A DNA stretch of 32,000 nucleotides from Synechococcus sp. A15-28 (GTDB lineage Bacteria > Cyanobacteriota > Cyanobacteriia > PCC-6307 > Cyanobiaceae). The notes under the pieces are model-generated. The model was not told where the DNA came from and made no database searches. It saw only the letters and a list, made by a program, of their open reading frames with translations. This document shows positions 7,047 through 32,000 of this stretch, in pieces (within the stretch, counting starts at the first letter, position 1; every line of letters starts with the position of its first letter). Location: positions 120,001-152,000 of the forward strand of contig NZ_CP047931.1 of NCBI RefSeq assembly GCF_014280175.1. The letters run 5' to 3'. A program made the translations under genes and the position numbers.

Positions 7047-7152
7047 TCGCTGTCCTTTCTTAAGAGAATCGGTAAAGCGACCGCTGTCAGAGCGGTTTCG
7101 ACCCGGTCTGTTCGGATTGAACGGTAAGGTTTCAACTCGTTAAGCCAGGTTG

Positions 7153-7914
7153 ATGTCTGGTGACGTCCTGAGCCAACCCAAAGCCACTGTCCTGGTCGTT
7201 GATGACGAGGCGGCTGTTCGGCGCGTCCTGGTGATGCGGCTGCAACTTGCTGGCTACCGCGTGGTGTGCGCTGAGGATGGTGAACTGGCGTTGTCGCTGT
7301 TTCACAGCGAATCACCGGATCTGGTGGTGCTCGATGTGATGCTGCCGAAGCTCGATGGATTCGCGGTATGCCGTCGTCTGCGGGCGGAATCCTGCGTACC
7401 AATTATTTTCCTTTCGGCTGTCGATGCCATTTCGGAGAAGGTGGCCGGCCTGGACCTGGGAGCCGACGACTACCTGCCGAAACCATTCAGTCCGAAGGAG
7501 CTCGAAGCACGCATCGCCACCATCCTCCGCCGTGTGGGTCGGGGAGCCGCTGAGATCGAAAGCCGTGAGTTGCCGACCGGTCAAGGGGTGATGCGACTGG
7601 GCGAGCTGGTGGTGGATACCAACCGCCGACAGGTCACCCGTGGTGCCGAACGGATCAACCTCACCTACACCGAATTCAGCCTGCTGGAATTGCTGTTCCG
7701 CGAACCCGGCCAAGTGGTTCCCCGAGCGGAAATTTTGGAGCAACTCTGGGGTTACCCGCCCCGCCGCGCCGCTGACCTGCGGGTGGTCGATGTGTACGTG
7801 GCTCGGCTTCGGGGCAAGTTGGAACCGGATCCCCGTAATCCCGAGCTGATTCTCACGGTTCGAGGCATCGGTTATTGCTCGCAGCGTCTTGGGGAGACCG
7901 CGGCGACGGCCTGA
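7153..7914 (+). CDS. OmpR-family two-component response regulator (RpaB/Ycf27-like paralog)
   Basis: Receiver domain VLVVDDEAAVRRVL ... DLVVLDVMLPKLDG ... GADDYLPKPFSPKELEARI. Winged-helix output domain LTYTEFSLLELL ... VDVYVARLRGKLE ... TVRGIGY. Confidence 0.85.
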   Translation: MSGDVLSQPKATVLVVDDEAAVRRVLVMRLQLAGYRVVCAEDGELALSLFHSESPDLVVLDVMLPKLDGFAVCRRLRAESCVPIIFLSAVDAISEKVAGLDLGADDYLPKPFSPKELEARIATILRRVGRGAAEIESRELPTGQGVMRLGELVVDTNRRQVTRGAERINLTYTEFSLLELLFREPGQVVPRAEILEQLWGYPPRRAADLRVVDVYVARLRGKLEPDPRNPELILTVRGIGYCSQRLGETAATA

Positions 7915-7959
7915 ACCACCCACGAGCGGGCAGGATGGCGCCCGATTGCCACGTCTGCT

Positions 7960-9468
7960 GTGTCTGAGCTGCGCGACACCCGTTTGGAGAAGTCCAGGGC
8001 ACTGGCTGATCTCGGGCAGGGGCCCTACGCCCTCGGTTTTGAGCCGACCCACCGCATGTCGGCCCTGCAGGAGACCCATGCCGATCTCCCCAAAGGAGAA
8101 GAGCGTGCTGTGACTGTGTCCGTCGCCGGTCGCGTGATGACGCGGCGGGTGATGGGCAAGCTCGCCTTTTTCACCCTGGCGGATGAGACCGGCACCATTC
8201 AGCTGTTTCTGGAGAAAGCAGGTCTGGAGGCGCAGCAGGAGGGCTGGTTCAAGCAGATCACCGGATTGGTGGATGGTGGTGACTGGCTTGGGGTGAGCGG
8301 CACCCTGCGCCGCACCGATCGCGGTGAGCTGTCGGTGAAGGTGAGCGACTGGCGCATGCTCAGCAAGGCGCTGCAGCCGCTGCCGGATAAGTGGCACGGT
8401 CTTGCCGATGTGGAGAAGCGCTACCGCCAGCGCTACCTCGATCTCATCGTGTCTCCAGACACCCGGGAGACCTTTCGCCGCCGGGCGCGGCTGGTGAGTG
8501 GCATCCGCCGCTGGCTGGATGAACGGGACTTCCTCGAAATCGAGACGCCGGTGTTGCAAAGCGAACCCGGCGGTGCCGATGCACGTCCATTTGAGACCCA
8601 TCACAACGCCCTTGATCTCCCCCTCACCCTGCGCATCGCCACCGAGCTGCATCTCAAGCGGCTGGTGGTGGGGGGCTTCGAGCGGGTTTACGAACTGGGC
8701 CGGATCTTCCGGAATGAGGGGGTCAGCACCCGTCACAATCCGGAGTTCACCTCGGTGGAGATCTATCAGGCCTATTCCGATTACATCGGAATGATGGAGC
8801 TCACCGAGCAGATGATCAGTGCCGTCTGTCAGGAGGTTTGCGGCAGCTGCCAGATCACGTACCAGGGCACGGAGATTGATCTGAGCCCTCCCTGGCGCCG
8901 AGCGACCATGCATGAGCTGGTGGAGGAGGCCACCGGGCTTGATTTTCAGAGCTTTGGCAGCCGGGAGGAGGCCGCGGCGGCGATGGTGGCCAAGGGCCTG
9001 CATGCCCCTGAGCTGGCCGATTCCGTAGGGCGCCTGCTGAATGAGGCCTTCGAGCAGGCGGTGGAGACAACGTTGATTCAGCCCACCTTTGTGACCGATT
9101 ACCCGGTGGAGATTTCACCCCTGGCCCGGCCTCACCGCAGCAAGCCTGGCCTGGTGGAACGCTTCGAGCTGTTCATCGTCGGCCGTGAGCATGCCAATGC
9201 CTTCAGTGAGCTCACGGATCCGGTGGATCAGCGCCAGCGCCTGGAGGCCCAGCAGGCCCGCAAGGCGGCTGGGGATCTGGAAGCTCAGGGGCTGGACGAA
9301 GACTTCGTCACGGCCCTGGAGGTAGGTATGCCTCCCACCGGTGGCCTCGGCATCGGCATTGATCGTTTGGTGATGCTGCTCACGGACAGCCCTTCCATTC
9401 GCGATGTGATCGCCTTCCCGCTCTTACGGCCGGAGTCCAGGGCAGAGGATGCCCCCGCAATGGGATAA
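7960..9468 (+). CDS. lysS: Lysyl-tRNA synthetase, class II
   Basis: 502 aa with a GTG start. Has an OB anticodon-binding N-domain and class II motifs ([55 protein letters not shown]). Confidence 0.95.
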
Positions 9469-10514: not shown

Positions 10515-11464
10515 TCAGTTTGCCGGCAAAAGCAGATGCAGAGCCATCTGCTGGTGTGGATCGGTCCAGCGGCGTTGGATCCGCCAGCCGGCCTGGGCTG
10601 CGAGGGCGGCCGCGGAGTCCGGTGAGTACTTGACGCTGTGTTCAGTGATCCAGGCGTCGCCCTGGCGAAAGAACCAGGCCTCACCGCCCAGGTTTAAGGT
10701 CTGATCCTGTGTGCTCACCAGCGCCATTTCGATGCGCTGATGCCCCGCCTGCCATTGGGCCCGGTAGCGGAATTGCGTGGGATCGCCATCGCCCTGCAGG
10801 TCTCGGTTGAGCCGCTGCAGCAGGTTGCGGGCGAATGCGGCGGAAACGCCGGCGGCATCGTCGTAGGAGGCCTCCATCAGGGCCGGCTCGCGCGGTTGAT
10901 CCAGCCCCAGCAGCAGCGGCCCTCCAGCCAGCAGCCGCCGGGCACTGCGCAGAAAGTCGACAGCTTCCTCTGGAGTGAAGTTGCCCAAGGAGCTGCCAGG
11001 AAAGAAGCCGATGCGCCTTTGGCCGTCCAGAGCGGGATGCTGCGGCAGCTGCTCCAGGCGGGTGTGGTCACAGCAGATGCCCACCATGGCGGTGTTGGGG
11101 TGTCTGGCCGCGAGGCCGGAGAGCGCCTCCTTCAGGGCGCTGAGGCTGATGTCCAGCGCGGCGAAGACGCTGCTGCCCAGAGCTGTGAGCAGCGGATCCA
11201 CCTTGCGGGCATTCCCGATGCCGAATTCCACCACCATTCCGGGGCCCGTGGCGGCAGCGATGGCGGGTGCGTTCTTTTCCAGCAGAGCGATTTCCCGTTG
11301 GGTGAGGGTGTATTCCGGTTGCTTGCAGATCTCGGCGAACAGCCGGGATCCCTCGGCGTCGTAGAGCATCCATGCCGGTAGTTGGCGAGGACTGCGCCGC
11401 AAGCCATCCCGAACCAGGCGTTGCAGATCCGCCGAGGGTGGGTGGAGGTTGAGCAGGCTGATGC

Positions 11465-11468
<4 letters not shown>
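10515..11468 (-). CDS. egtD: L-histidine N-alpha-methyltransferase (EgtD-like, ergothioneine biosynthesis)
   Basis: 317 aa from the ATG at 11468. Motifs include LPAWMLYDAEGSRLFAEICKQPEYTLTQRE, EFGIGNARK, FFPGSSLGNF and the C-terminal SVKYS. The long upstream extension of the tracked ORF (to 11930) overlaps egtB and is rejected. Confidence 0.8.
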
Positions 11469-12613
<1,145 letters not shown>

Positions 12614-13023: not shown

Positions 13024-13082
13024 TCACCAACGAGGGGGTTTCGTCTGGTGTGTTCACCCTGTCCTGTCGGGCGGACCCGCTC

Positions 13083-13426
13083 GATCAGTAACGTTCAACC
13101 GCTGCTTTCACATCCTTTTTGGATTGCTTTTCCTTTTCGGCGGCGCGTTTGTCGTGCAACTTGCGATCTTTTCCCAGGCCGATGGTGAGCTTGATCTAGG
13201 AGCCTTTGAGGTGAATGTTGAGGGGGATCAGCGTCAGCCCTTTCTGATCCACCAAACCGCGCAGCTTCGATCTCACGGCGATGGGTCAGCAGTTTGTGGG
13301 TGCGCAAAGGGTCGTGGTTGAAGTAGCTGCCGGCGTGGGTGTGGGGTGAGATGTGCACGTTGTGCAACTGCAGATCAGGCAGAAGCCATCGCGAGGGTGG
13401 CTTTGCCGTTGCAGATCGACTTCACC
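13083..13426. repeat. Left copy of a direct repeat (smpB 3' region) flanking island 1
   Basis: Direct repeat with 18410-18769. It starts 2 nt beyond the smpB stop codon in both copies (GATCAGTAACGTT) and ends at CTTCACC. Confidence 0.85.
13085..13426 (-). pseudogene. 5'-truncated, frameshifted remnant of smpB (3' about 340 nt)
   Basis: Aligns base by base to intact smpB at 18412-18769, about nine positions in ten by eye. It has indels of 2, 13 and 1 nt and lacks the first ~48 codons. The translated fragment [22 protein letters not shown] matches intact SmpB and then goes out of frame. Confidence 0.85.
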
Positions 13427-13526
13427 AAGGTTTCCGACAACGAAGAAAATATTTGTTTCGATGATTGTATTTTTAACTAAGAGTTTTAAATGACATTCAC
13501 TGAAGGCTGGGCGTAAACTCAAATTA

Positions 13527-14609
13527 CTAGTTCAAGACGTTGTTCAGCAATTGTGTCCATTTTTTTTCGTTTGCTTTAGGAGAAAAGGGTAAGAGAATGT
13601 CTTCTCGTAAGCTTTTATATCTCAATGAGAGTTGATTATAATTTTCAATCGCACTATGAAGCATTGAGCTGAAATTCTCGCCTAACAATGATAACGAATT
13701 TAGTTCCTTATAACTTGGCAGCGGACTTGCTACACAGATACAACCTGCCCTGATTGAGTCAACTAATCTGTTGTGGCTAGCACCTTGCTTCTCTGGGTCA
13801 TTAGGATTGCTCGGTATTAGTGAGATGTGAGCCCTTGCCAATTCCTCATTGAATTGTTTTGGTTGCATGTAACCATTCCATTCTACAAATCTATAGTTCC
13901 ATTTTGGATATACATCTGGATTTTCCTTTAAAAAATTTCTAAAATAGTTTACAGCGTTTGTGGCTGTAAATACTGTAAACTCAATATCATAAGCATCAAA
14001 TTTACTTTGGGCAATATCTAAAAGTTTTTGATGTAAATAACAAAGATTCAACGCAGCACCAAACCATATAATTTTTATTGAAGAATTTTTATTGAGATTT
14101 TTGTAGTCTTCAAGGCTTTTGATTTGCCAGGGATCTTCAATTACATGAAAATGTAAGCCACTTCTCGAAGAACTTTGAGCAAGTTGCTTTAAAGACGACG
14201 TAGGACATACAACATGATCAGCTAAAAATAGTAAATCTCTGTAAAACTCACCTCTCTCATCTTTTCTGTTTAGGTGATGATTACTGTATAATACAATTAT
14301 GGGTATACCCATACGTTTCATTCTGGCAACTGCTGACAGGTTTGCAACATTGCACTTAATATCATCTCCGATCATTTTGCCTACCAAGCATATCCTTGGT
14401 AGGCCAAGACATTCGAGATATTCCGGAAACTCAGTGCTGAGACTTAGGCTTTTTGCTTGCATACCAATTGATTTAGCCGCATTAAGTGCAGGAATTAATT
14501 GAAGCCGTGCAGATGCGAGTTGAGAATAAGAATTTTCTTGTAAAATAGTTTCAGTTAAATCTCCATATCTGTCCCTATAGAAATTAAGAGCGAGAATTTC
14601 GTTTTGCAT
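13527..14609 (-). CDS. Paralog 1 of an unrecognised GT-B-like putative glycosyltransferase family
   Basis: Shares LASxRLQ, VGK, DPWQ, WFG and IPSxPxDPxKxGxSHNRLVDSIRAGC..ASPxxSYKEL with the two upstream genes. The ATG at 14609 sits 1 nt from the upstream stop. The alternative start at 14639 would overlap by 29 nt. Confidence 0.55.
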   Translation of the reverse strand: MQNEILALNFYRDRYGDLTETILQENSYSQLASARLQLIPALNAAKSIGMQAKSLSLSTEFPEYLECLGLPRICLVGKMIGDDIKCNVANLSAVARMKRMGIPIIVLYSNHHLNRKDERGEFYRDLLFLADHVVCPTSSLKQLAQSSSRSGLHFHVIEDPWQIKSLEDYKNLNKNSSIKIIWFGAALNLCYLHQKLLDIAQSKFDAYDIEFTVFTATNAVNYFRNFLKENPDVYPKWNYRFVEWNGYMQPKQFNEELARAHISLIPSNPNDPEKQGASHNRLVDSIRAGCICVASPLPSYKELNSLSLLGENFSSMLHSAIENYNQLSLRYKSLREDILLPFSPKANEKKWTQLLNNVLN

Positions 14610-14610
14610 C

Positions 14611-15783
14611 TTATAGAAAAATTGGATTGCAAGTATCAATATTTTTACTCTTCACCATTGTATTCTTTTGAATGTCACGAAGTATTAGCTCCCAGTTCTT
14701 AATATTAGTCGCCGGGTCAAATGGTGAAACTAATTTTTCCCTGTAGATGGAATACTTATCACATAATCGATCATAATTTAGTATCGCAGCTTTTAAAAGT
14801 TGATTAAAATCTTTGCCGAGAAGGCATATTTTTGATAATTCTTTGTAGCTTGGCATTGGACTGGCAATCGGTATACATCCCGATCGTATTGAGTCAATAA
14901 GGCGATTGTGGCTTACCCCAATTTTTGCCGGATCCTCAGGATCGGATGGAATCACTGCAATATCTATTTTGCTTAAGAAGTTCTCAAGCTGCTGAGGCTG
15001 GCTATTATTATCCCATGTAATCATTTCAAATTTCCATTTGCTTTTTGCAAAAGCTTTGTCTTGAATTGTGACTTTGATTAGTTCATGACTTATGGGCCTA
15101 CCAAGAAATCGAAAGGTTAATTTCATCCTTAATAGAGCAGGGTCTTTGATTTGCTTTAATGCATTACATAAATATGCTGTGTTATTTGGAGCACCAAACC
15201 ATCCTATTGTGTAAGCTTTGTCCCCCATTTTTTTCCTGTAATCCTTTAGGTTTTTAATTTGCCACGGGTCACGAATCACGTATTGGCATAAATTTTTTCT
15301 TATATATGCACTCGCTAGTTTTTGCATCGCAACGCTAGGGAATATGATTGAATCAGCATAATAAATAAGATCTGAATAAAGTTCAGCAATATTATTTTGC
15401 TTGATAATTTGGTGGTCACAGTATAGGAGTGATATATGAGTTCCTTTTCTTTTCAATCTTGAAATTGCAGCCAAGTTTGCCATTGCCATGCTGTGGGATA
15501 GTAATTCGTCTGTTGTAGACATTTTTCCTACAAGGCAAATCGACGCATTCCCCAAATGTAAAAAGTCGTCTGGATGAGCACTGTGCATACTCCACAATGA
15601 TCTATCAAAATTTAGAGTTTTTGCGGCAATCAATGCGGGATACATCTGTAGCCTAAATGAGGCAAGGCTTGCATTGCTAGATTTTTTATTTATTAATTCA
15701 CTTAGTTTTTCCCCGGACTTATTTTCAATGAAACTCAAGCAGATTATTTTCTTGTCCATGTTACTTTTTGAATTAGGATTCAC
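14611..15783 (-). CDS. Paralog 2 of the same GT-B-like family
   Basis: Same motif set (LASFRLQ, DPWQIKNLKDY, IGWFG, VIPSDPEDPAKIGVSHNRLIDSIRSGCIPIASPMPSYKEL). An alternative ATG at 15759 would remove the 11-nt overlap. Confidence 0.55.
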   Translation of the reverse strand: MNPNSKSNMDKKIICLSFIENKSGEKLSELINKKSSNASLASFRLQMYPALIAAKTLNFDRSLWSMHSAHPDDFLHLGNASICLVGKMSTTDELLSHSMAMANLAAISRLKRKGTHISLLYCDHQIIKQNNIAELYSDLIYYADSIIFPSVAMQKLASAYIRKNLCQYVIRDPWQIKNLKDYRKKMGDKAYTIGWFGAPNNTAYLCNALKQIKDPALLRMKLTFRFLGRPISHELIKVTIQDKAFAKSKWKFEMITWDNNSQPQQLENFLSKIDIAVIPSDPEDPAKIGVSHNRLIDSIRSGCIPIASPMPSYKELSKICLLGKDFNQLLKAAILNYDRLCDKYSIYREKLVSPFDPATNIKNWELILRDIQKNTMVKSKNIDTCNPIFL

Positions 15784-16876
15784 TATTTATGATGCTTTGT
15801 ACTATTGATTGCCAGTGAAGCTTGTTTGCTGTTGGACTAAACCTTTCAATTATATTACAGCGATTTGCATCATACTGCCTCCGCAATAAATATTGATTTT
15901 TGGCTACATAGCTCATCATGCTTGAGAAATTATTCCCTATAATGGCCAGACTTGAGAGCTCTTTGTAGCTCTGCATAGGGCTTGCTATGGGTATGCATCC
16001 AGCTCTTATAGAATCAACCAATCTATTATGACTTACCCCTAACTTTGCCGGGTCATTTGGGTCTGATGGAATCAGTACAATTTCTGCTCTATGCAGTTCT
16101 TCCTGAAGTTGATTAGGTTGGTTATTATTTTTCCACTTCAAATATGTAAATTTAATTTTTTTTGCTGAAAGATTAAGTGACTTTACTTTATTTTTTATAA
16201 ATTCAATCGCTTCAAGAGAGCTCAAGATAGTCAAGCGTAATTGCTTGTTTTGACTGTCTGAATGATATATTTGGGGTAGTATATTTATAAGGTATTGAGC
16301 GTTTAGTCCGGAACCAAACCATAGTAGATTTAAGCAATTTGAACTTGAGCTCTTGTGATAAGAATGCTCCTCTACTTGCCAAGGATCTTCTACTACATAT
16401 ATGTTCTTGCCCTGTCCAAGGGAGTGGTTTTTTAAAGATTCTTTTAGCGCCTGTGTGGGGCAAATAATTAAGTCTGAATAATAAATTAGATCCCGGTATA
16501 GCTCGCCAATCCTTGTTTTTTTTATTATGTGATTATCACTGTAGATTAGTGCTTGGACAGATTTACACCTTTTTTGTCTACATACCGCTGCCAAATTAGC
16601 CATTGCCATGCTGCTGATCAGGTGATTGCTATTTGCCGATAATTTCCCTACTATTGTCAAAAAAGATTTTTCTTTGAATATTTCGGTATTTAGGTGTTCA
16701 GAGTGTAGACTAAATCTCTTGCATTTTATATTCATTTTATTGAGAGCCTCATACAAGGGATAAAGTTGCAGCCTTGTTGAAGCTAAGCTTGAGTTTTTGT
16801 ATGATTGATCGAAGTTGAGCCTGCCCTTTTTATTAATCATAAACTCTAAAAATATTGCGCTTCTTGATATATTCAT
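15773..16876 (-). CDS. Paralog 3 of the same GT-B-like family
   Basis: Same motif set (LASTRLQ, EDPWQVE, LLWFG, LIPSDPNDPAKLGVSHNRLVDSIRAGCIPIASPMQSYKEL). Confidence 0.55.
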   Translation of the reverse strand: MNISRSAIFLEFMINKKGRLNFDQSYKNSSLASTRLQLYPLYEALNKMNIKCKRFSLHSEHLNTEIFKEKSFLTIVGKLSANSNHLISSMAMANLAAVCRQKRCKSVQALIYSDNHIIKKTRIGELYRDLIYYSDLIICPTQALKESLKNHSLGQGKNIYVVEDPWQVEEHSYHKSSSSNCLNLLWFGSGLNAQYLINILPQIYHSDSQNKQLRLTILSSLEAIEFIKNKVKSLNLSAKKIKFTYLKWKNNNQPNQLQEELHRAEIVLIPSDPNDPAKLGVSHNRLVDSIRAGCIPIASPMQSYKELSSLAIIGNNFSSMMSYVAKNQYLLRRQYDANRCNIIERFSPTANKLHWQSIVQSIINSES

Positions 16877-16926
16877 AGAAATGAATGCTCATATTGATAT
16901 GCTAGCATCTAAAAAATTTTGTTCTT

Positions 16927-17910
16927 ATGCCGTCGATAGGTATTTATCATGGAGATGAAGACTGGGTATTAAAAGGTATCGGTCAAGACTTGGCGCGATC
17001 CTTCAAGGCTTTAAGCGTTCCTGGACTTGAGATTCAGACTACGGATCAAGTGTTTAATAAAATTCGTTTAAAAACGGATTTTCATCTGTTCGTACAGCAA
17101 GGCCAACTAAATGAAAATTGTTCGAACAATCCTGAAAAAGTGCCGGAAGGCTCAATATGTTTATTTACTCATTTAGATATTCGTAATTTTAAGCCAAGAA
17201 TTCTCCATAAGTGTAAATATGTAATATTTAATTCGTCCATTCAATTGTCACAAGCTATCGCCAATGGATATAACCCAGTAAATGCGGTGCTCAAGCCACA
17301 TGCTGTAGACCCAGATTTACATAGAATTATTAGTGAGGATGATCCAAAAATGCAATTTGTGCTTTCAGATTTGCATAAGAAAGGTTATCCACATTCGATG
17401 CATTCATCTGTTGGTTTTTGTGGCCGATATTGGGATAAAAGTACTTACACAAGACGAAAAAATTATGATCTAATTAAACTTGTTATTTGCGATCTTCTCG
17501 ATAAGCGTATTCCGGTCTTAGTTATGGGTCCAGGTTGGAAGGACTTTCTCGAATTGTCCTCTGAATATTTGGTAGTTGTAGAAACAAAATACAAAAACTA
17601 TCCATACTATTACAATCTAATGAGGGTTTTTTCGAGTTTATCAATACATGAGGGTGGGCCTTTGCCTTTGCTTGAGTCGATGTGTTGTGGCGTATACCCA
17701 GTTGTTACTAATACAGGTTTTGCGTCAGATATTATTTCTGATAAGCAACATGGAACTATTGTTTCACCTTTTGACAAACCAGCTCATCAAGCTGGATTAT
17801 TGTCAGACGTCTACTTTACCCATCGAATAGATGCAGAAGCTCTTAGAGGTCGAGCTTCTAAATTCAGTTTCTCTTCTTTGTCTAAAGTGATTTTGAGATT
17901 GGTTCTGTAG
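16927..17910 (+). CDS. Glycosyltransferase, GT4-like (retaining, EX7E motif)
   Basis: The C-terminal motif SIHEGGPLPLLESMCCGVYPVVTNTG contains E-x7-E followed by a G..PV strand, typical of GT-B family 1/4. Divergent from the paralog operon, with only a 50-nt spacer. Confidence 0.7.
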   Translation: MPSIGIYHGDEDWVLKGIGQDLARSFKALSVPGLEIQTTDQVFNKIRLKTDFHLFVQQGQLNENCSNNPEKVPEGSICLFTHLDIRNFKPRILHKCKYVIFNSSIQLSQAIANGYNPVNAVLKPHAVDPDLHRIISEDDPKMQFVLSDLHKKGYPHSMHSSVGFCGRYWDKSTYTRRKNYDLIKLVICDLLDKRIPVLVMGPGWKDFLELSSEYLVVVETKYKNYPYYYNLMRVFSSLSIHEGGPLPLLESMCCGVYPVVTNTGFASDIISDKQHGTIVSPFDKPAHQAGLLSDVYFTHRIDAEALRGRASKFSFSSLSKVILRLVL

Positions 17911-22941: not shown

Positions 22942-24339
<1,398 letters not shown>

Positions 24340-24340
24340 G

Positions 24341-25171
24341 ATGAAGTCATTTATATATGGACATTGTGTGGGGCATGCCGGTTCTACTTACTTATCGAAA
24401 TTGGTAAAGTATCTTTATCCGGAACTTGCCGTTGTACACGGAAAAGAAGTTACCTTGCAAAAATATAATGAATCTTATATGTATAAACTCCCGGAAAATG
24501 CATCCAATATATTTTCCTCAGGTGGAAGTTTGTTTGGTATTCATTGGGATCGTGCCGCATTCAATCCATACTTAAGTTTTTTGAAAGAACAAAGCACCAA
24601 GGATTTTGTATTAGCCAGAAATCTTGAGGAACAAGTCTGCTCAATGTATGCGCACTCCCTAAATCGTTACTCAGTGGATGAAATGAATCCATCTAATACT
24701 TTTATTCAAATGCTTATTTCGAAAGTTTCGATTCTGGGTCAAATAATTAGTTTAGCTGGTAAGAAAAATATTTCATCAATAGTAATTGCACGAATAATAC
24801 CATTAGTATTTTATACCTGGCGCATCACCTATTTTTATCATTTATTCAATGAACTGGAGCACAAGAATGATGAATATATCTTTATGGAAGATCTTTACTC
24901 AAAACCATCTTCAACATATACTTTTTTGAAGAAAAATTTCGGTTATGTAAATGAGGAAAACTGGGAAAAAATGGAGTCTTTTTCAGCATCAAAAAACGAA
25001 CATCAGAATAATAGAAAAGATAAATTGACAAAATTAATTCGATCCGACGAGTTTCGTTATGCAGCAAATTATTTTAATCAATTAAATCCGTTAAAATTAA
25101 AGTTCAGTAAATCCATTCTTAGCCATAAACGCTCTTTCCAATTTTTGCTAGACATAGGATTTGAATTGTAA
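24341..25171 (+). CDS. Sulfotransferase-like protein (tentative)
   Basis: The N-terminal GHAGSTYLSKL resembles the 5'-PSB loop (xxGTT/STxL). LARNLEEQVCSMYAH resembles the 3'-PB RxPxxxxxS.Y motif. The later FMEDLYSKP...FLKKNFGY resembles the usual YEDL...FLG segment. Motifs are read by eye only. Confidence 0.45.
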   Translation: MKSFIYGHCVGHAGSTYLSKLVKYLYPELAVVHGKEVTLQKYNESYMYKLPENASNIFSSGGSLFGIHWDRAAFNPYLSFLKEQSTKDFVLARNLEEQVCSMYAHSLNRYSVDEMNPSNTFIQMLISKVSILGQIISLAGKKNISSIVIARIIPLVFYTWRITYFYHLFNELEHKNDEYIFMEDLYSKPSSTYTFLKKNFGYVNEENWEKMESFSASKNEHQNNRKDKLTKLIRSDEFRYAANYFNQLNPLKLKFSKSILSHKRSFQFLLDIGFEL

Positions 25172-25330
25172 ATTAATTAATAATTGAATGATAGTCTGCT
25201 GCATTAATGGTTGACGCATAATTTGCATGAATATATGGAATATTAAGCATTCCGTAACAGATCTGTAGGTAAATCTGTTGTCACTAATCATAGAATAACA
25301 GTAGAATCAATTCTTCAGATAATATATTTA

Positions 25331-25897
25331 TCACCCTGGTAAATACCCTACTTGTTTTGTCAATATGTGGATATCCACCAAATATATCGCTAAGAAGTGT
25401 TCGGTCGCTTCTATTTGTTGAATCTGATAGTCATCAGAAGTTTTATCTATATTTAGCAAAATTATTTTCGTATTTATGAAATTGTGATTTTGCATTGTGC
25501 CTAAATACCTTGACCTTCCAAATATTGTTCAATGATTATTTAAATAGTCTTTCAGTTCTTCTTTAATGCATAAATCAATTTCAGAGAGTGAGTTTGAGAT
25601 GATTTCATCAAACGATAATGGTAAAAAAATTTCATTTGCAACCTCAAATCTACCATAAAAGCTTAAGTCACTCCCTCTTTTAAAATGACATAATCTATTC
25701 GCAATAAGCTGTGGACTGATGATGATTCCAAGATTGCCTACCTGTGATTGTAAATAAGAGTGAGGTACCGAGGAGTTATTTGTGATTATAAACGTAGCAC
25801 TAAAATAGGAATTTAAATATTGAAGAAGAGGGAAGTTGATGTGATCTCCATCAGTAAGAGTACCGTCCCAATCTATTGCAATAATCTTCTTTTTCAT
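25331..25897 (-). pseudogene. HAD-IIA-like phosphatase interrupted by an in-frame TGA (25529-25531) and 3'-truncated
   Basis: The N-terminal part (ATG 25897 to 25529) has motif I IAIDWDGTL and motif II IITNNSS. The same frame stays open for 57 more codons after the TGA (…TKIILLNIDKTSDDYQIQQIEATEHFL…), which is unusual for such AT-rich DNA. No recognisable C-terminal motifs follow. Confidence 0.55.
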
Positions 25898-25926: not shown

Positions 25927-26661
25927 ATGTTAAAAAAAAGTGTACTAATTGTTGGTTCAAGTTCTGGATTGGGGAGAGCACTATTTGATTTATATTCATC
26001 TAATGGGGATAATGTTACCGGTTTAAGCCGATATAGAAATTGCTCAGTCCTAGATGAGCATCAATTAAAAGGTGATATTCATAAGTATGATTTATTGCAA
26101 AGTAATACACAAAAAGATTTTAATCATATTGTTATGAATATGTCATTTTTCACCCATTGCATCTTTTGTGTTGGAGGAGGCTATGGAATAAAATCAATGA
26201 TGCCCTCTTTTGATGATTTGCTTTTACTATTAAAACTTAATCTCTTGGTTCCGGCCGCTCTTGTGAGATCATTATTTGATATGAAGAAAATTAATAATAT
26301 CACTAAAATATGTTTTATATCTAGTATAGCCGCAGAAGAAGTGACTGCATCTGTTGGATACACAACAGCAAAATTAGCTCTCAATGGTTATTCTAAACTT
26401 CTAAGTAAGTATGACAATAAGGTAGGGCCTGTGATGACTGTGAAACTGGGGGCTGTAGAGGGTTACGGAGCAGCATTTGATAGATTAAAGGTAAATAATA
26501 AACCAGCCTACGAGGCATTTATACATGAACGGCTTAATGGAAGTTTTCCAATGCATGCGACCAATGTTGCTGAAGCAATTGTTTCTTTGCTAGATTTACC
26601 CTACAATTTAGTAAATGGTCTCACCATCAAATTGGACAATAGCGAGTCGTCAAAGGTTTAA
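25927..26661 (+). CDS. Short-chain dehydrogenase/reductase (SDR)
   Basis: Glycine-rich VLIVGSSSGLGRAL cofactor motif near the N-terminus, catalytic S…YTTAKLAL (YxxxK), about 244 aa. The ATG at 25927 is preferred over the TTG at 25909. Confidence 0.85.
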   Translation: MLKKSVLIVGSSSGLGRALFDLYSSNGDNVTGLSRYRNCSVLDEHQLKGDIHKYDLLQSNTQKDFNHIVMNMSFFTHCIFCVGGGYGIKSMMPSFDDLLLLLKLNLLVPAALVRSLFDMKKINNITKICFISSIAAEEVTASVGYTTAKLALNGYSKLLSKYDNKVGPVMTVKLGAVEGYGAAFDRLKVNNKPAYEAFIHERLNGSFPMHATNVAEAIVSLLDLPYNLVNGLTIKLDNSESSKV

Positions 26662-26665
26662 TCTT

Positions 26666-27430
26666 ATGAGTCTCTACACTAGTGGCATACAAAAATATAG
26701 CTTGCCAAATGATAGTTTGACGAACCAACTAATTGATTCTATCATCAAGGCAACTTCTGAATATACCGATAAAAGCTTCATTTCAGGTTTAGATCATATT
26801 CATGATTTTGTGGATGATAATGAATTAAATGAATACAGATTAAGTATTATCCAAAAGCTAAATTATAATCAGTTTGCAAGTAAACTAATTTTTTCTCATT
26901 GCAAAGAGATTCTTACTAGTATTTTAGGCCCCGATATTGCTATACAAAAAAATGTGGGATTATCAATTCAGATGCCAAACGACTCGAGTTCCCTTCTGCC
27001 TATACATAGTGATGTTTTTAGTAGTGACTGCTCACCTTATGAGCTCGTGATTTGGATTCCCTTAGTCAAGTGTTATAAGACAAAATCTATGTTCTACTTG
27101 CCCTTTGACCATTGTTCTAGTCTTCATGAATACCTACATTTACTAAGCTCAAATAACATTTCGAGTATCGACGAATTTCAATCAAAGTTCCAAAATAACT
27201 ATAAATTTTTAGAAATCACCCCCCCATCTTTTGCTCTTTTTTATCATTCTATATGGCATGGGAATGTGATTAATTGCGAGCCTGAAACGAGGTGGTCTAT
27301 AAATCTGAGAGTAAAAGGATTATTTACGCCATATAAAGGAAAGCAGATAGGAGATTATTTTACAATTGCCCAAATTTCAGATGCAACAAAACTTTCTTCA
27401 TTGATCGATGAGATATATTATGACTCATAA
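26666..27430 (+). CDS. Fe(II)/2-oxoglutarate-dependent oxygenase (PhyH-like)
   Basis: The HxD…H facial-triad pattern (LPIHSDVF … FYHSIWHGNVIN) followed by RWSINLRV (a 2OG-binding Arg) is consistent with the phytanoyl-CoA-dioxygenase-like fold. ATG at 26666. Confidence 0.6.
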   Translation: MSLYTSGIQKYSLPNDSLTNQLIDSIIKATSEYTDKSFISGLDHIHDFVDDNELNEYRLSIIQKLNYNQFASKLIFSHCKEILTSILGPDIAIQKNVGLSIQMPNDSSSLLPIHSDVFSSDCSPYELVIWIPLVKCYKTKSMFYLPFDHCSSLHEYLHLLSSNNISSIDEFQSKFQNNYKFLEITPPSFALFYHSIWHGNVINCEPETRWSINLRVKGLFTPYKGKQIGDYFTIAQISDATKLSSLIDEIYYDS

Positions 27431-27866
27431 AAGAGCATTTGGCTATATTTCCAGTACTCCATTTTGGCGAGGACAGTATATTCCGCAAAAAATTCAAAAC
27501 CTCATCGTGCGCGATTATTGTATTCAAAGGGATATTAATTTCGTATGGTCTCTTCCTGAAATTTCATTAATTGACTCCTCTTTGTCTTTTAATGAACTTT
27601 TACGTTTAAGGAATGAAAATGATGTAACTGACATTGTATTTATCTCGTCTCAGATGCATAAACCCAATCTTCTCAGATCTATTATAAACACCTGTTTTGC
27701 TGAAAATGTAAATATTCATTTTGCTATTGAAAATGAAGAATACAATTTATGCTCAACTGTATATCCAGAAGTGGCCATCAACAAACTAATCTATGAATCT
27801 ATGATGGCTTCACATCGCCGTGAGGTCCCTGCTTCACTGCTAGCTCAGTATGCTAAAATTAAATGA
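27420..27866 (+). CDS. Small uncharacterised protein, LIC12192-like (sporadic carbohydrate-cluster family; from memory, unverified)
   Basis: The N-terminus FGYISSTPFWRGQYIPQKIQNLIVRDYC resembles what I recall of a TIGRFAMs family found next to a 2OG oxygenase in scattered glycan loci. It overlaps the oxygenase gene by 11 nt. An alternative ATG lies at 27408. Confidence 0.5.
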   Translation: MTHKRAFGYISSTPFWRGQYIPQKIQNLIVRDYCIQRDINFVWSLPEISLIDSSLSFNELLRLRNENDVTDIVFISSQMHKPNLLRSIINTCFAENVNIHFAIENEEYNLCSTVYPEVAINKLIYESMMASHRREVPASLLAQYAKIK

Positions 27867-27881
27867 TATACAATTAAAAGC

Positions 27882-28400
27882 ATGAGATCATTGATTTGTG
27901 TTGCATCAAATTTCCAAGATGAAGAAGTTATTTATCCATTCTATAAATTACAAGAATTCTCTGAGGTGACGATTGCTTCTTGTGACGGTAAAACAGTTTA
28001 TGGTAAGTATGGAGTCCCTGCGAGGGCGTCGAAGCGCTTCTCCGAAATTGACACTAATGAATATGATATATTGATTATTCCAGGCGGATTTGAGTGTCCA
28101 GATCGTCTAAGAATTGACGATGAATGTATTCGAATTGTTCAAGAGATGATTGATAAAAATAAGGTTGTAGGTGCGATATGTCATGGTCCTTGGGTTCTCA
28201 TTTCTGCAAATCGCACAAAAGGTCGTGATATGACTGGATATAAAGCAGTCCATATTGATCTTTCCAACTCAGGTGCAAATGTTTTGGATAGTAGTGATGT
28301 TGTAGTTGACGGGAATTTAGTAACTGCTCCACACTACAAGAACAATCCACAATTTATGCTTGCTGTTCAATCCTTGGCCACCAATAAAAGCCATGTCTGA
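27882..28400 (+). CDS. DJ-1/PfpI-family protein (class-I glutamine-amidotransferase-like fold)
   Basis: YDILIIPGG, the nucleophile elbow VGAICHGPWVL, and VVVDGNLVTAP. 172 aa. Confidence 0.85.
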   Translation: MRSLICVASNFQDEEVIYPFYKLQEFSEVTIASCDGKTVYGKYGVPARASKRFSEIDTNEYDILIIPGGFECPDRLRIDDECIRIVQEMIDKNKVVGAICHGPWVLISANRTKGRDMTGYKAVHIDLSNSGANVLDSSDVVVDGNLVTAPHYKNNPQFMLAVQSLATNKSHV

Positions 28401-30162
28401 GAAAAAAATATTTACCGCATCAAATTTAATTGTACAGTTTTTAGAGAATATAGATGTTTCAACGGTGTTTTGCGTTTCTGGCGGCTCAATCCATAATATT
28501 ATTGCTGCAATCGATTCGTCAGATAAAATTAAACTTGTACCTTGTTATCATGAGCAAGGTGCAGTCTTTGCAGCCGAAGCATACGCACGTGAAACAAATA
28601 ATCTTGGCGTTGTTCTAGTTACGTCGGGTCCAGGTCTGACTAATATTGTCACAGGAATTTCGTCATGTTGGGTAGACTCTATTCCCCTACTTGTTATAGC
28701 TGGTCAGGTTCTTTCGTCTCAGAGAATTAGTGAGCTGGATATTCCGATTCGTCAAAGAGGTGTTCAGGAATCACCCACACACGAATTGGTTCGGCCAAAT
28801 GCTAAATCGAGTTATTCAATATCAAAATCTTGTGATCTATTATATTATTTACAGATTGCCTCTCGAGATGCCCAAACCGACAGGAAAGGGCCTGTGATTC
28901 TTGAAATGCCTGTTGATACTACATATATGTCACTACCTTTGGAAAGAAAAAATTATTCTTGTTTTTTGCCCAACAACCTCCAATCTAATATTGCAAAGAC
29001 ATTACCAGCCCAAAAAAACGAATTACTCATTGACCGACTGATTGGTTGTCTTTCTCAATCCTGCTTGCCTTTGGTTCTTTTAGGAAACGGAATCAGATCA
29101 CTGTCGCAACAATCAGTTAATGTTTTGATTGACTTTTGCGTAAAAAATTCTATTTTCTATTCTTACACTTGGGCTGTAAAAGATATTATCGAGCCGATTT
29201 CTCATACTGCTTTATGCGTTGGCTCACCAGGAATTTTTGGGTCTCGTTCGGCTAATGCATGTTTGCGCCTTAGTGATTTTGTATTAGTTCTAGGTTCATC
29301 GTTTTCTTATACACATAGTGGTTATCGCTTGAGTAAGCTTAATATGGATAAATTTCATATAGTTGATATTGATTCATCGCAACTTGCTAAGCCTGAATTA
29401 AATCAATCTAGTAAGATTGTAGCAGACCTTAGGGTTTTCTTGCCTCATTTGTTCGATAGAATCCCATACGATTTCAAGCCTTTTCATAATGATAGTTTAG
29501 AGTTTTCTTCACGTCTTAAAAAATTCGAAGAGCATGATCTTATTTATAATGATAATAGCAGCATTTATTTGATAGCTCAGTCCTTGAATGAATATCTCTT
29601 TTCATCCAAAGACAACATCACTATTGTAACCGATATGGGTACATCTTTTACTGCTTTTCATGGCTTTCTCCGCTTGCACGGTGGGCGCATGTTTACTGCT
29701 TCTGGTCATGCACCTATGGGTTGGGGGCTTCCTGGGGCAATAGGAGCCGCCATGGCAGCTCCGAACAAAAAAATCATATGTCTTACTGGGGATGGTGGCC
29801 TATTAATGAATGTCCAGGAGCTTATGCAGCTTTCTTATTATCAGTTGAATATATCGATTATTTTATTGAATAATGGTGGCTATTCAACGATTATGAAAAC
29901 CACATCACGCTACCATGGTAAGAATCTTGCCTCTGATTCCAATTCAGGTGTTTGCATGCCTTGTTTTAAGGATTTAGCCAAAGCCTATAATATCCCTTTC
30001 TCTTCAACAAATCATTACTCTAGTATTCATACTCAAATTCTTCCTAATAGCCCTCAATTCATTGAAGTTATTGTGTCACCTGATGAGTATATTGGTCCCA
30101 GGCTTATGCCCTCCGATAGCATTGATGATGAACACCTTAATATGTATCCCTATCTTAATTAA
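28393..30162 (+). CDS. Thiamine-diphosphate-dependent enzyme, acetolactate-synthase-large-subunit-like (three-domain)
   Basis: N-terminal Pyr domain (VFCVSGGSIHNII, HEQGAVFAAEAYAR, VTSGPGLTNIVTGI) and C-terminal ThDP motif GDGGLLMNVQEL…LLNNGGY. 589 aa from the ATG at 28393, with an 8-nt overlap with the PfpI gene. Confidence 0.85.
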   Translation: MSEKKIFTASNLIVQFLENIDVSTVFCVSGGSIHNIIAAIDSSDKIKLVPCYHEQGAVFAAEAYARETNNLGVVLVTSGPGLTNIVTGISSCWVDSIPLLVIAGQVLSSQRISELDIPIRQRGVQESPTHELVRPNAKSSYSISKSCDLLYYLQIASRDAQTDRKGPVILEMPVDTTYMSLPLERKNYSCFLPNNLQSNIAKTLPAQKNELLIDRLIGCLSQSCLPLVLLGNGIRSLSQQSVNVLIDFCVKNSIFYSYTWAVKDIIEPISHTALCVGSPGIFGSRSANACLRLSDFVLVLGSSFSYTHSGYRLSKLNMDKFHIVDIDSSQLAKPELNQSSKIVADLRVFLPHLFDRIPYDFKPFHNDSLEFSSRLKKFEEHDLIYNDNSSIYLIAQSLNEYLFSSKDNITIVTDMGTSFTAFHGFLRLHGGRMFTASGHAPMGWGLPGAIGAAMAAPNKKIICLTGDGGLLMNVQELMQLSYYQLNISIILLNNGGYSTIMKTTSRYHGKNLASDSNSGVCMPCFKDLAKAYNIPFSSTNHYSSIHTQILPNSPQFIEVIVSPDEYIGPRLMPSDSIDDEHLNMYPYLN

Positions 30163-30178
30163 ATTTTTTTAGATACCA

Positions 30179-31306
30179 ATGAAGCTGATTTTTCATCAAT
30201 GCGAAAAACCGTTAGTTCAGTCAATGAAGATATCTCGCGGTGGGTTTCAATCGCGAATTCACAACATATTTGAGTTAAGATTAAATAATCGATCTTTTTA
30301 CTCAGAAGTTATAGGTGATTCCTCTCTCATAAAATACCTAGTCTCGAAGCTTTCTGCATACATTAAGGCTTATAATCCTCTCGACGTCAGTGCTCTGTTT
30401 GAATGTATTGCTAGCTGGCCAAATACTTTTGTTTATTTAGAGTCTGCCAGCAGCATTCACTCCATAATATGCGCATTTGATTGGCTTTACTGTGTTTATT
30501 CTTCATATTCGCAGAATATATCCTTATATGAGTATTTAGGTCTTCCCATAGCTACCTCAAACCAATGCCCTATATATGCCTCTAACTTTTATATGTATGA
30601 TGATATGAGTGACTTTGAATCTCAATTCTCTGGGTTTGATTTTTCAAAAACGAATAATATAAAAGTTCATTTAGGAGCAAATGCAATCGAAGACGAGTCT
30701 GATTTCTATCTAGTGCTTGAGAGATATATGCATCGCGCTGATTCTATAATGATTGATTACAATTGTGGATATAACCTATCAGCGCTTGTTGACATTCAAA
30801 ATGTATTGCTTCGATATCCTAATTTGTCTAATAAGTTATTATGGGTAGAAGAACCTACTCACCCCAATTTCTCTAAATATTGGAAAGACCTGTTATTTTT
30901 TGAATGTGCGGCAGGCGAGAATCATCATGGTGTTGAAAGTCTTTTTCAGTTGACTAATTGTAATGTAAAATACATCATGCCTGATCTTGGAAGAACTTTA
31001 AAAGTATCTGAGCTTCCATCTCTAATAAAGAGACTTGAAAAGTCAGATTCATCTATTTCCTTTCATAGTTTTTCAAGTGGTTTCTTGTCTTACATTACAT
31101 TATATCTAACATTGTCTCTTGATACGAAGCATCAAATGTTTGAATATGACTTTTCTGATAACGCTTTGCTCGATGAGATTCTTCTTGATTCCTTCCAAAT
31201 TAAAGACGGCTATGTAACACTTAATAGCTCAGTCTTATTTGATTTGAATTTACCTTCTACACTAGATGGTTGGTATACTACTAGTATCGAACTTTTTGAA
31301 GCATGA
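30179..31306 (+). CDS. Divergent enolase-superfamily (mandelate racemase/muconate-lactonizing-enzyme-like) protein
   Basis: The barrel-domain ligand pattern is in the canonical order: IKVHLG, IMIDYNCGYN (Asp), LLWVEEP (Glu), AAGENHHG (Glu), IMPDLGR, SFHS, then QIKDGYVTL near the C-terminus. Confidence 0.6.
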   Translation: MKLIFHQCEKPLVQSMKISRGGFQSRIHNIFELRLNNRSFYSEVIGDSSLIKYLVSKLSAYIKAYNPLDVSALFECIASWPNTFVYLESASSIHSIICAFDWLYCVYSSYSQNISLYEYLGLPIATSNQCPIYASNFYMYDDMSDFESQFSGFDFSKTNNIKVHLGANAIEDESDFYLVLERYMHRADSIMIDYNCGYNLSALVDIQNVLLRYPNLSNKLLWVEEPTHPNFSKYWKDLLFFECAAGENHHGVESLFQLTNCNVKYIMPDLGRTLKVSELPSLIKRLEKSDSSISFHSFSSGFLSYITLYLTLSLDTKHQMFEYDFSDNALLDEILLDSFQIKDGYVTLNSSVLFDLNLPSTLDGWYTTSIELFEA

Positions 31307-32000
31307 AACCAATTGATCTTAACTCATTGAAGAACTATCTAGACTTAGGGTATTTTTCTTCTTCACCTGGTACTAGACGCAGTATCAAAAGAAATATAGC
31401 CAACAAAATGCGAGCATGGGAGCTTTCGTATGATTACTATGATGGAGATAGAGATGACGGGTATGGTGGTTTTACCTTTGATGATAGATGGAATGCTTAT
31501 CTGCATAAACTGTTTATATCTACCAATCTAATCTCATCAGCTAACCCGAATCTTTCTGTATTAGATGTTGGCTGCAAAAAGGGATTTTTATTGCAATCTT
31601 TAAGGAAATTGTACCCTAATGTCTATTCCGTTGGAGTTGAAAATCATAGATATCCATTAAGTGTTGCTGACTCTTCGATAAAGTCGAGGCTGCTTTTGTC
31701 TGAATATTATAATCTTCCATTTGAGGATCATTGCTTTGATCTCGTTATTGCATTCTCCTCCATCTACATGTATAATTTAAAAGGTGTGATTAATTCAATA
31801 CGTGAGATTCAGCGCGTCTCCTCTAATACCTCTTATATCTCTTTGGCTGCTTATAATCATGACTGGGAAAAAGATATCTTCATGAATTGGACACTTCTAG
31901 GAACAACTTGCCTCCATATTTCTGAGTGGCTTGATATATTTAACGATTTAAATTACACCGGTTATTACGTCTTTACTACTCCTACACTTTTGGGTTTTTC
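31303..32000 (+). CDS. Class I SAM-dependent methyltransferase, N-terminal ~232 codons (runs off the window end)
   Basis: I translated this ORF by hand, because it is not in the track and is open to the window edge. Motif I is VLDVGCKKGFLLQSL and the post-I/II region is FDLVIAFSSIYM. The ATG at 31303 overlaps the upstream stop (ATGA). Confidence 0.75.
   Translation, partial: MKPIDLNSLKNYLDLGYFSSSPGTRRSIKRNIANKMRAWELSYDYYDGDRDDGYGGFTFDDRWNAYLHKLFISTNLISSANPNLSVLDVGCKKGFLLQSLRKLYPNVYSVGVENHRYPLSVADSSIKSRLLLSEYYNLPFEDHCFDLVIAFSSIYMYNLKGVINSIREIQRVSSNTSYISLAAYNHDWEKDIFMNWTLLGTTCLHISEWLDIFNDLNYTGYYVFTTPTLLGF

Follow-up and report, generated by a model that had tools for sequence, protein, structure and literature searches.

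A low-GC gene cassette of Synechococcus sp. A15-28 may encode a variant of the acyl-branched sugar pathways built from new parts

The 32,000-nucleotide stretch of the Synechococcus sp. A15-28 genome analysed here (contig NZ_CP047931.1, positions 120,001 to 152,000; hereafter the window) ends in a series of seven closely spaced + strand genes. We interpret them as part of a longer cassette, nine genes or more in all and acquired horizontally, that runs past the window end. We propose, at about an even chance of being right, that this cassette makes a tailored acyl-branched, nucleotide-activated sugar for a cell-surface glycan, following the logic of the YerE-type pathways with new parts. The framework of acyl-branched sugars is already known; what is new here, as far as gene content tells, is that one cassette joins two modules otherwise occurring apart, namely an oxygenase/LIC12192/methyltransferase triad and a trio of enolase-like, DJ-1 and cupin genes. 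The visible genes are the following:

25529..25897, - strand: short HAD-like gene of 122 aa, divergent from the operon (Hydrolase_6, E = 0.0025)
25927..26661, + strand: gene 1, classical short-chain dehydrogenase/reductase (SDR) oxidoreductase (adh_short 29.8 bits, cutoff 26.6)
26666..27430, + strand: gene 2, Fe(II)/2-oxoglutarate (2OG) oxygenase, hydroxylase type, of the TIGR04324 'sporadic carbohydrate cluster' family
27420..27866, + strand: gene 3, divergent LIC12192-family protein with a small alpha/beta domain, directly after the oxygenase
27882..28400, + strand: gene 4, DJ-1/PfpI-family protein (PF01965 147.7 bits; TIGR01382 146 bits, cutoff 139)
28393..30162, + strand: gene 5, thiamine diphosphate (ThDP)-dependent enzyme of the decarboxylase superfamily (TPP_enzyme N, M and C domains)
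30179..31306, + strand: gene 6, divergent enolase-superfamily protein (MR_MLE_C 45.4 bits, cutoff 29.4)
31303..32000, + strand: gene 7, class I S-adenosylmethionine (SAM) methyltransferase, cut by the window end (Methyltransf_31/11/25)

The operon runs from 25927 to past 32000, its genes spaced by gaps or overlaps of 4-16 nt: gaps lie at 26661/26666 (4 nt), 27866/27882 (15 nt) and 30162/30179 (16 nt), and overlaps at 27430/27420 (11 nt), 28400/28393 (8 nt) and 31306/31303 (4 nt, ATGA). The seven head-to-tail open reading frames (ORFs) and the six junctions are all as an initial annotation, made from the sequence without database searches, had given them, and hidden Markov model (HMM) searches of Pfam and NCBIfam/TIGRFAM agree with each of its seven domain assignments. 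A scan for promoters and terminators returned counts not above chance in AT-rich DNA and says nothing either way on co-transcription.

The same cassette is present on other marine contigs. The closest oxygenase homologues (54-61% identity) all come from marine metagenomes or single-cell genomes, and in these relatives SDR, oxygenase, LIC12192-like, DJ-1, ThDP, enolase-like and methyltransferase genes follow one another in the order of the window, on contigs of 28-30% GC. Beyond the window, the order is kept at 35-62% amino-acid identity in eight or more independent marine contexts (about ten contigs). It recurs in L082-L092 and L095-L097 (L numbers denote the loci compared in this study), so the arrangement lies far beyond chance; the initial annotation had held beforehand that its unit would fall if the genes were not co-conserved elsewhere, and they are. 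In the related loci the methyltransferase gene is followed by a cupin of ~250 aa with a weak phosphomannose-isomerase-type match and then by a ~280-aa protein without family (genes 8 and 9), a continuation that is taken from the homologous contigs only. Profiles of genes 8 and 9 gave nothing significant against the PDB; gene 9 resembles a second HxD...H oxygenase, judged by eye only. A metagenome scan seeded with the enolase-like family returned the further contexts L090-L097, where DJ-1, ThDP, enolase-like, methyltransferase and cupin genes are always contiguous, and where the block formed by the divergent HAD gene, SDR, oxygenase and LIC12192 lies directly upstream (L090, L091) or inverted downstream (L096). 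From these positions and the extra downstream genes, the cassette comprises at least nine genes in two blocks, and the seven-gene unit first described gives way to two separable modules, with nine or more genes and, in addition, a HAD gene in divergent orientation.

The initial annotation also stressed that the entry enzymes of nucleotide-sugar pathways and export genes are missing. Within the window, the region indeed holds no nucleotidyltransferase, 4,6-dehydratase, aminotransferase or exporter gene, but the lack of entry enzymes does not stand as a trait of the system, since such genes adjoin the cassette in three of the four contexts first found by exact-protein look-up (L085, L086/87, L088/89). 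Their absence here is probably due to the window ending where it does. The recurring neighbours are a sugar-1-phosphate nucleotidyltransferase, a 4,6-dehydratase-like SDR (TIGR01181, 162 bits), a GalE-like SDR and two PseC/DegT-type aminotransferases; the heptose-pathway genes GmhA, HAD and HldE-like are often near the cassette too, and in L086 a TIGR04372-family glycosyltransferase stands beside it. These neighbourhoods support the surface-glycan setting that had been suggested. The statement that the unit fits no described pathway has to be given up, as it matches the core of the 'sporadic carbohydrate cluster' and the acyl-branched-sugar scheme (PMC9306805). No member of the unit is characterised, and a literature search on 'sporadic carbohydrate cluster', LIC12192 and TIGR04323/TIGR04324 gave no paper.

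Genes 2, 3 and 7 form the conserved triad. Gene 2 is a full member of TIGR04324 (218.6 bits, cutoff 150), and its family alignment keeps H114-x-D116...H198 and R209 invariant. The oxygenase has no sequence match in the PDB; its AlphaFold model (predicted local distance difference test, pLDDT, 89.6) finds PhyH-like oxygenases as top Foldseek matches, among them CurA Hal, SyrB2, PtlH, the aminosugar enzyme KanJ and proline hydroxylase. A halogenase reading was rejected because HxD is retained, and motif and model together predict a hydroxylase or oxidase. Gene 3 scores 50 bits against TIGR04323, just below the cutoff of 55 (its L082 homologue, 44 bits), and keeps both the position and the invariant residues of the LIC12192 family (G8, Y9, Q23, Q26, S44, E47, E104). 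The LIC12192 profile has no match in the PDB, an AlphaFold model from a shallow alignment (pLDDT 61.6) returned only generic alpha/beta Foldseek matches (E > 0.004, TM < 0.5), and a word-based homologue search found two near-identical matches only. Gene 7, the third member, shows 232 codons against 229-232 aa in its homologues, so that only the stop codon region lies past 32000, and is 53% identical to the methyltransferase of L082/L085.

ThDP enzymes that branch keto sugars, by known or proposed reactions, come from three superfamilies (PMC12247030): decarboxylases of the YerE type, alphaKADH2 E1alpha/beta enzymes, and split transketolases, for which there are 13 candidates, every one from Streptomyces and still unassayed. 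These three types are the ones swapped beside the two modules. A genome scan with the oxygenase alignment returned 80 loci of the generic cluster, from SAR11 (~22), Reyranella, Leptospira (5), cyanobacteria, Bdellovibrio-like bacteria and others. LIC12192 directly follows the oxygenase in 59 of them, and a homologue of the window methyltransferase comes after the oxygenase in 69; homologues of the window DJ-1, ThDP and enolase-like proteins were found in none of the 80. By ORF clustering and HMM searches, the generic architecture consists of a GalE-like protein, an HldE-like nucleotidyltransferase/kinase fusion, a 533-aa protein, a transketolase split into N and C halves, and the triad, with GmhA, RmlD-like, WbuC cupin, DegT and TIGR04372 glycosyltransferase genes also frequent. 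The split transketolase was detected by tblastn in 68-69 of the 80 loci. In two SAR11 loci (L012, 7796-9849; L028, 4-1682) an E1alpha/E1beta pair directly upstream of the oxygenase takes its place, which indicates that ThDP superfamilies are swapped at one position of the generic cluster; in L041 (2-1806) such a pair lies farther from the oxygenase. Overall, the triad stands beside a ThDP enzyme of the known or proposed sugar-branching superfamilies in at least 71 of the 80 loci, and its neighbourhoods mark it as a portable tailoring module, usually but not always beside a ThDP enzyme. Compared with the generic cluster of the Leptospira lipopolysaccharide (LPS) locus and SAR11, the window is alike in the oxygenase, the LIC12192-like gene at the same position, the methyltransferase and the glycan setting. 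It differs in having no transketolase, HldE-like or GalE-like gene, the transketolase being absent from all variant loci too, and in the DJ-1, YerE-like ThDP and enolase-like genes inserted between LIC12192 and the methyltransferase.

Several observations concern the generic loci themselves. The ~533-aa protein (L053, 6478-8079, and 46 other generic loci) lies just upstream of the split transketolase and has no NCBIfam match; it carries an N-terminal HAD-like DxDxT motif, and its C-terminal region resembles an aminoglycoside/choline-kinase fold by eye. In the SAR11 locus L056, a second oxygenase and LIC12192 pair (13501-14707) lies 3.5 kb downstream of the first, with no ThDP enzyme near, and adjoins NeuB, UDP-GlcNAc 2-epimerase and formyltransferase, which are nonulosonic-acid genes. 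Three IMG/VR contigs classed as viral (L117, L118, L119; GC 0.55-0.63) carry the generic transketolase-type cluster and may be mis-binned cellular DNA or cargo of mobile elements.

The ThDP enzyme of the cassette is probably of the YerE-like type. Gene 5 reaches 244 bits against the acetolactate synthase (ALS) equivalog TIGR00118, less than half the cutoff of 538, and the cassette holds no gene for a small regulatory subunit (ilvN/ilvH-like). Its best PDB match is 8rph, at 234 bits when the single sequence is the query and at 288 bits with the family profile. This is JanthE, a YerE-like enzyme that forms tertiary alcohols from 2-oxo acids and ketones (PMC12188165). With the same profile the best ALS (ALS I) scores 240 bits and 5ahk 233 bits. 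The family alignment shows no variation at the catalytic E54 (in YHEQGA) or at the ThDP/Mg motif G466-D467-G468...N493-N494. On these scores, gene 5 is predicted not to be a true ALS and to lie nearest to the YerE-like ketone-accepting carboligases.

Gene 6 belongs to a rare family (25 representatives at E <= 1e-10 among 1.84 billion) whose alignment keeps K162, H164, D193, E224, E247, D269 and H296 invariant, and whose profile aligns motif by motif with the 3,6-anhydro-L-galactonate cycloisomerase 5xd7 (E = 1.8e-8). All metal ligands and the His/Asp pair are kept, and the second lysine of KxK is replaced by His164. The protein thus resembles the dehydratases and cycloisomerases of the mandelate racemase (MR) subgroup (5xd7; galactonate and arabinonate dehydratases), the products of which are 2-keto-3-deoxy acids, in its D/E/E ligands and the Asp of the His-Asp pair. 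It is nonetheless very divergent from them: the match is found by profile only, K-x-H stands for K-x-K, the MR_MLE_N capping domain of Pfam is not detected, and every dehydratase equivalog score is negligible, far under its cutoff. Gene 6 is 28% identical to relatives of acid-sugar-dehydratase type in a more distant group. We propose that it is an MR-subgroup enzyme of the acid-sugar dehydratase/cycloisomerase type that makes the 2-oxo-acid donor. The NCBI product of gene 6 in A15-28 has only 233 aa (P0069), or 62% of the ORF; as the family strongly conserves the first 140 aa of the long ORF, with ISRGGF, SE.IGD and FVYLE invariant, the annotated start is probably too far downstream.

The other enzymes of the cassette are recognisable to differing degrees. 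DJ-1 is its best conserved member (61-65% identity), and gene 4 contains the Cys-His nucleophile elbow AICHGP. Gene 1 has the SDR motifs GSSSGLG and YTTAK (YxxxK), shares 41-42% identity with its positional counterpart in L082/L085, and is a candidate side-chain ketoreductase in a YerF-like role. The divergent position beside it is held in all related cassettes by a 241-aa HAD-IIA-like gene (in L082, TIGR01460 HAD-IIA, E = 4e-5). The 122-aa protein of the window is 24-25% identical to residues 7-107 of this protein in L082/L085, and no C-terminal remnant was found in the 357-nt non-coding stretch 25172-25528; its length and the missing remnant mark it as a shortened and probably decayed version of the 241-aa gene.

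A distant branch of the enolase-like family (24-34% identity, L098-L116) shows the second module in another setting. Its proteins have full MR_MLE_N and C domains and match arabinonate and galactonate dehydratases best, and the enolase-like gene is again accompanied by a DJ-1 gene (44-51% identical to that of the window) and a cupin of the same type. An E1alpha/E1beta ThDP pair follows this trio in all ten distant-group loci with enough sequence (L098-L109). The neighbours are an HddA-like kinase, an HddC-like nucleotidyltransferase, an epimerase/dehydratase, a HAD protein, an RfbH-like DegT protein and a flavoenzyme like L-2-hydroxyglutarate oxidase. The trio is always accompanied by a ThDP enzyme that decarboxylates, a YerE-like one in the close group and an E1alpha/beta pair in the distant one, and it is found in none of the 80 generic, mostly transketolase-type loci. 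Transketolase donors are common metabolites. The restriction of the trio to ThDP enzymes that decarboxylate 2-oxo acids, and never to transketolases, fits a role in donor supply, an argument that rests on three architecture types. In one branch of the distant group (L098/L099), two B12-binding radical SAM enzymes, candidate C-methyltransferases, flank the enolase/DJ-1/cupin/E1alpha-beta set (5454-9016 and 13040-14380).

In the acyl-branched LPS sugars yersiniose, erwiniose, caryophyllose and gastriose, a YerE-like ThDP enzyme joins an acyl group derived from a 2-oxo acid to a nucleoside diphosphate (NDP)-4-keto-deoxy sugar, and a YerF-like reductase acts after this step; the clusters also encode the enzyme, so far always an aldolase, that provides the functionalised 2-oxo acid, and some hold a SAM methyltransferase too (the 'unifying scheme' of Steitz et al. 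2022, PMC9306805). Together with its usual neighbours, the cassette has a candidate for each role of this scheme, which supports the proposed acyl-branched sugar. Like the pathways to yersiniose A of Yersinia pseudotuberculosis, erwiniose (ErwE/F/I/J), caryophyllose (MMAR_2331-2333) and gastriose, it combines a three-domain ThDP enzyme of the decarboxylase superfamily with an adjacent candidate reductase of NAD(P)H type and a candidate enzyme dedicated to the 2-oxo-acid donor. It shares the SAM methyltransferase with the Rhodopseudomonas palustris cluster, and the NDP-deoxy-keto-sugar genes (beside the cassette in related loci) and surface-glycan setting are further likenesses. In contrast to those pathways, the candidate donor enzyme is of the enolase-superfamily dehydratase type and not a pyruvate aldolase such as ErwI, MMAR_2331 or MygI; neither the window nor any of the related cassettes was found to contain an aldolase gene. 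The cassette also adds a DJ-1/PfpI protein, a cupin like phosphomannose isomerase, one or two 2OG oxygenases, a LIC12192-family protein and a HAD protein. Its hosts are marine picocyanobacteria and low-GC marine bacteria. The antibiotic pathways with alphaKADH2 or split-transketolase enzymes (aldgamycin, avilamycin and kibdelomycin; miharamycin/amipurimycin) place C2 units onto keto sugars, by known or proposed reactions (PMC12247030). Of these two ThDP types, transketolase and, in L012 and L028, E1alpha/beta accompany the triad, and E1alpha/beta accompanies the trio (L098-L109), but the antibiotic clusters belong to actinomycete secondary metabolism, whereas the window probably carries the third, YerE-like type in a marine surface-glycan island. 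It is because the same three ThDP types are swapped beside both modules that we read the cassette as a variant of the acyl-branched-sugar pathways.

The analysis establishes the gene content, the catalytic motifs, the oxygenase fold, the conserved order, the module swaps and the foreign origin; substrates, products and the order of steps are all inferred, and the following route is proposed. The enolase-superfamily enzyme would dehydrate a sugar acid to a 2-keto-3-deoxy acid, possibly assisted by DJ-1 and the cupin. The YerE-like ThDP enzyme would then decarboxylate this 2-oxo acid, and the acyl-anion equivalent would attack the ketone of an NDP-keto-deoxy sugar, giving a tertiary alcohol branch. 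Genes beside the cassette in related loci, for a nucleotidyltransferase, a 4,6-dehydratase and DegT proteins or for the heptose pathway, could provide the keto sugar. The SDR would reduce the side-chain ketone, as YerF does, and the oxygenase/LIC12192/methyltransferase triad would hydroxylate and methylate the product. The initial annotation had envisaged an acidic, branched and methylated sugar. A branched and methylated product is favoured here as well, but an acidic one is not required, as the carboxylate-dependent enolase-type enzyme more probably makes a 2-oxo-acid donor that is later decarboxylated.

Several points weigh against the acyl-branched sugar we propose. It leaves DJ-1, the cupin, LIC12192 and gene 9 unexplained. 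The margin of JanthE over ALS is modest (288 vs 240 bits), and 5ahk, likewise a putative YerE homologue, does not outscore ALS. In L015, L051 and L056 the triad occurs without a nearby ThDP enzyme, from which it follows that the triad is not tied to branching. The alphaKADH2 (E1alpha/beta) enzymes, moreover, appear specialised for pyruvate and C2 branches (PMC12247030), which, for the distant group, weakens the case for the trio as supplier of a special donor. Because heptose-pathway genes recur, the strongest rival is that the ThDP enzyme extends a chain: the donor would be joined to an aldehyde, such as an NDP-hexose or NDP-heptose oxidised at its terminal carbon, and the octose, nonose or larger sugar so formed would be reduced, hydroxylated and methylated. 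GmhA, HldE-like or HddA/HddC-like and HAD genes recur near all three cluster types, transketolases as the commonest partner of the triad normally use aldehyde acceptors, and YerE-like enzymes take aldehydes too in vitro (PMC9306805). We nevertheless consider chain extension unlikely: the use of ketone acceptors distinguishes the nearest characterised relatives of gene 5, the cassette lies in three contexts beside a 4,6-dehydratase-like gene, whose product would make 4-keto sugars, and no obvious enzyme for making a sugar aldehyde is present.

Slightly less likely still is that the product is an acyl or acyloin unit other than a sugar, used either to decorate a sugar made elsewhere (for instance as an N-acyl group on an amino sugar or nonulosonic acid) or as a free small metabolite. 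Two DegT aminotransferases are frequent beside the cassette, the triad also occurs in the NeuB nonulosonic-acid setting of L056, the methyltransferase is weakly similar to a pseudaminic-acid-associated methylase, and the window itself contains no NDP-sugar gene. The cassette lacks, however, any acyl-activating enzyme, carrier protein, CoA ligase or acyltransferase, and the recurrent NDP-sugar genes and glycosyltransferases fit direct action on a nucleotide sugar. An SDR with an enolase-superfamily dehydratase is also the classic core of non-phosphorylative sugar-acid catabolism, and arabinonate and galactonate dehydratases are the best matches in the distant group, so that dehydrogenase, dehydratase and ThDP decarboxylase might belong to a catabolic or salvage pathway merely placed in a variable island. 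We regard this as improbable, since no typical transporter, regulator, aldolase or kinase is present, the scores fall far under every dehydratase equivalog cutoff, the cassette is fixed beside a triad known from LPS/glycan loci including that of Leptospira, and its neighbours are glycosyltransferases and NDP-sugar enzymes. The best NCBIfam names of gene 5 are all ALS large subunit, yet the notion of an extra ALS in an accidental neighbourhood is effectively refuted by the conserved gene order, kept across contigs of 26-41% GC and a host of 64% GC, and is further at odds with a score under half the equivalog cutoff and the missing small-subunit gene. Phosphonate biosynthesis was considered and rejected, there being no phosphoenolpyruvate mutase and the ThDP enzyme having all three domains.

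Synechococcus sp. A15-28, which has a protein 100% identical to the oxygenase of the window, is a clade III marine strain (PMC7522525). Its genome has a GC content of 64%, and the window holds two low-GC blocks, at 13.0-18.5 kb and from 24.3 kb to the end, the second of which contains the operon; GC is 0.31-0.40 from 24 kb onward vs 0.58-0.66 in the adjoining host DNA. The cassette DNA has ~35% GC and its relatives lie on contigs of 26-41% GC, among them one Marinimicrobia-labelled metagenome-assembled genome and one single-cell genome. The horizontal acquisition first suggested from low GC is upheld by this difference (0.35 vs 0.64) and these relatives, which make the cassette foreign to A15-28; judged on composition and relatedness, its source is low-GC ocean bacteria. 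A 1.6-kb Sargasso Sea (BATS) scaffold encodes a DJ-1 protein 100% identical and a LIC12192-like protein 99% identical to those of the window, and ENA metagenomes also hold near-identical LIC12192-like proteins, which places the island in natural populations. Two features define its left edge:

24260..24345, no strand: left junction of the low-GC island, where GC in 60-nt windows drops from 0.50-0.67 to 0.37-0.38 at ~24260
24341..25171, + strand: ORF of 276 aa at the island edge, of doubtful membership in the system

The junction falls in the final ~25 codons of thiC, the stop of which is at 24339, with the next ORF starting at 24341. The AT-rich end of thiC and an ORF 1 nt past its stop suggest that recombination replaced the 3' end of the gene. 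No tRNA gene was found in the whole window, and none is tied to the junction. The 276-aa ORF has no Pfam or NCBIfam match and no homologue in L001-L081 (tblastn), among the named genes of L082/L085 or in the L002-L085 ORF set (blastp).

The first low-GC island (13527-17910, GC ~0.36) carries three tandem - strand paralogues of 370, 390 and 367 aa, with 37-39% mutual identity and no Pfam family, and a divergent GT4-type glycosyltransferase gene on the + strand (16927-17910). A link between the two islands was rejected, as the three paralogues are unrelated to proteins near the cassette elsewhere. In high-GC host DNA (10515-12613, - strand), a histidine-specific methyltransferase gene (Methyltransf_33, 306 bits) adjoins a gene for a protein with DinB_2 and FGE-sulfatase domains, the domain pair of EgtD and EgtB in ergothioneine synthesis.

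Variable low-GC islands of marine picocyanobacteria and SAR11 encode surface chemistry recognised by phages and grazers, and to our knowledge most genes of such islands have no known product. Here, the cassette predicts a concrete one, a tertiary-alcohol branched, methylated sugar made with a YerE-like ThDP enzyme, and the comparison points to three ThDP superfamilies swapped within the same conserved gene frameworks: by locus type the ThDP position is held by a split transketolase (~85%), by E1alpha/beta in some SAR11 and by a YerE-like enzyme in this cassette. Tentatively, the triad and this swappable position could define a large uncharacterised family of carbon-branched or chain-extended surface sugars, with the enolase-like/DJ-1/cupin trio as a new route from sugar acids to polyhydroxy 2-oxo-acid donors that replaces the aldolases. 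The hosts of the triad include bacteria that rank among the most abundant in the ocean (SAR11, marine Synechococcus, Marinimicrobia) as well as the Leptospira LPS locus. If this holds, it would give a function to the curated TIGR04323/TIGR04324 cluster family of SAR11 and Leptospira, and would provide new carboligases and a donor-supply route for chiral tertiary alcohol biocatalysis. It would also be the first case of transketolase-type and E1-type sugar branching outside actinomycete antibiotic pathways, widening ThDP sugar branching by these enzymes from antibiotics to primary surface glycans.

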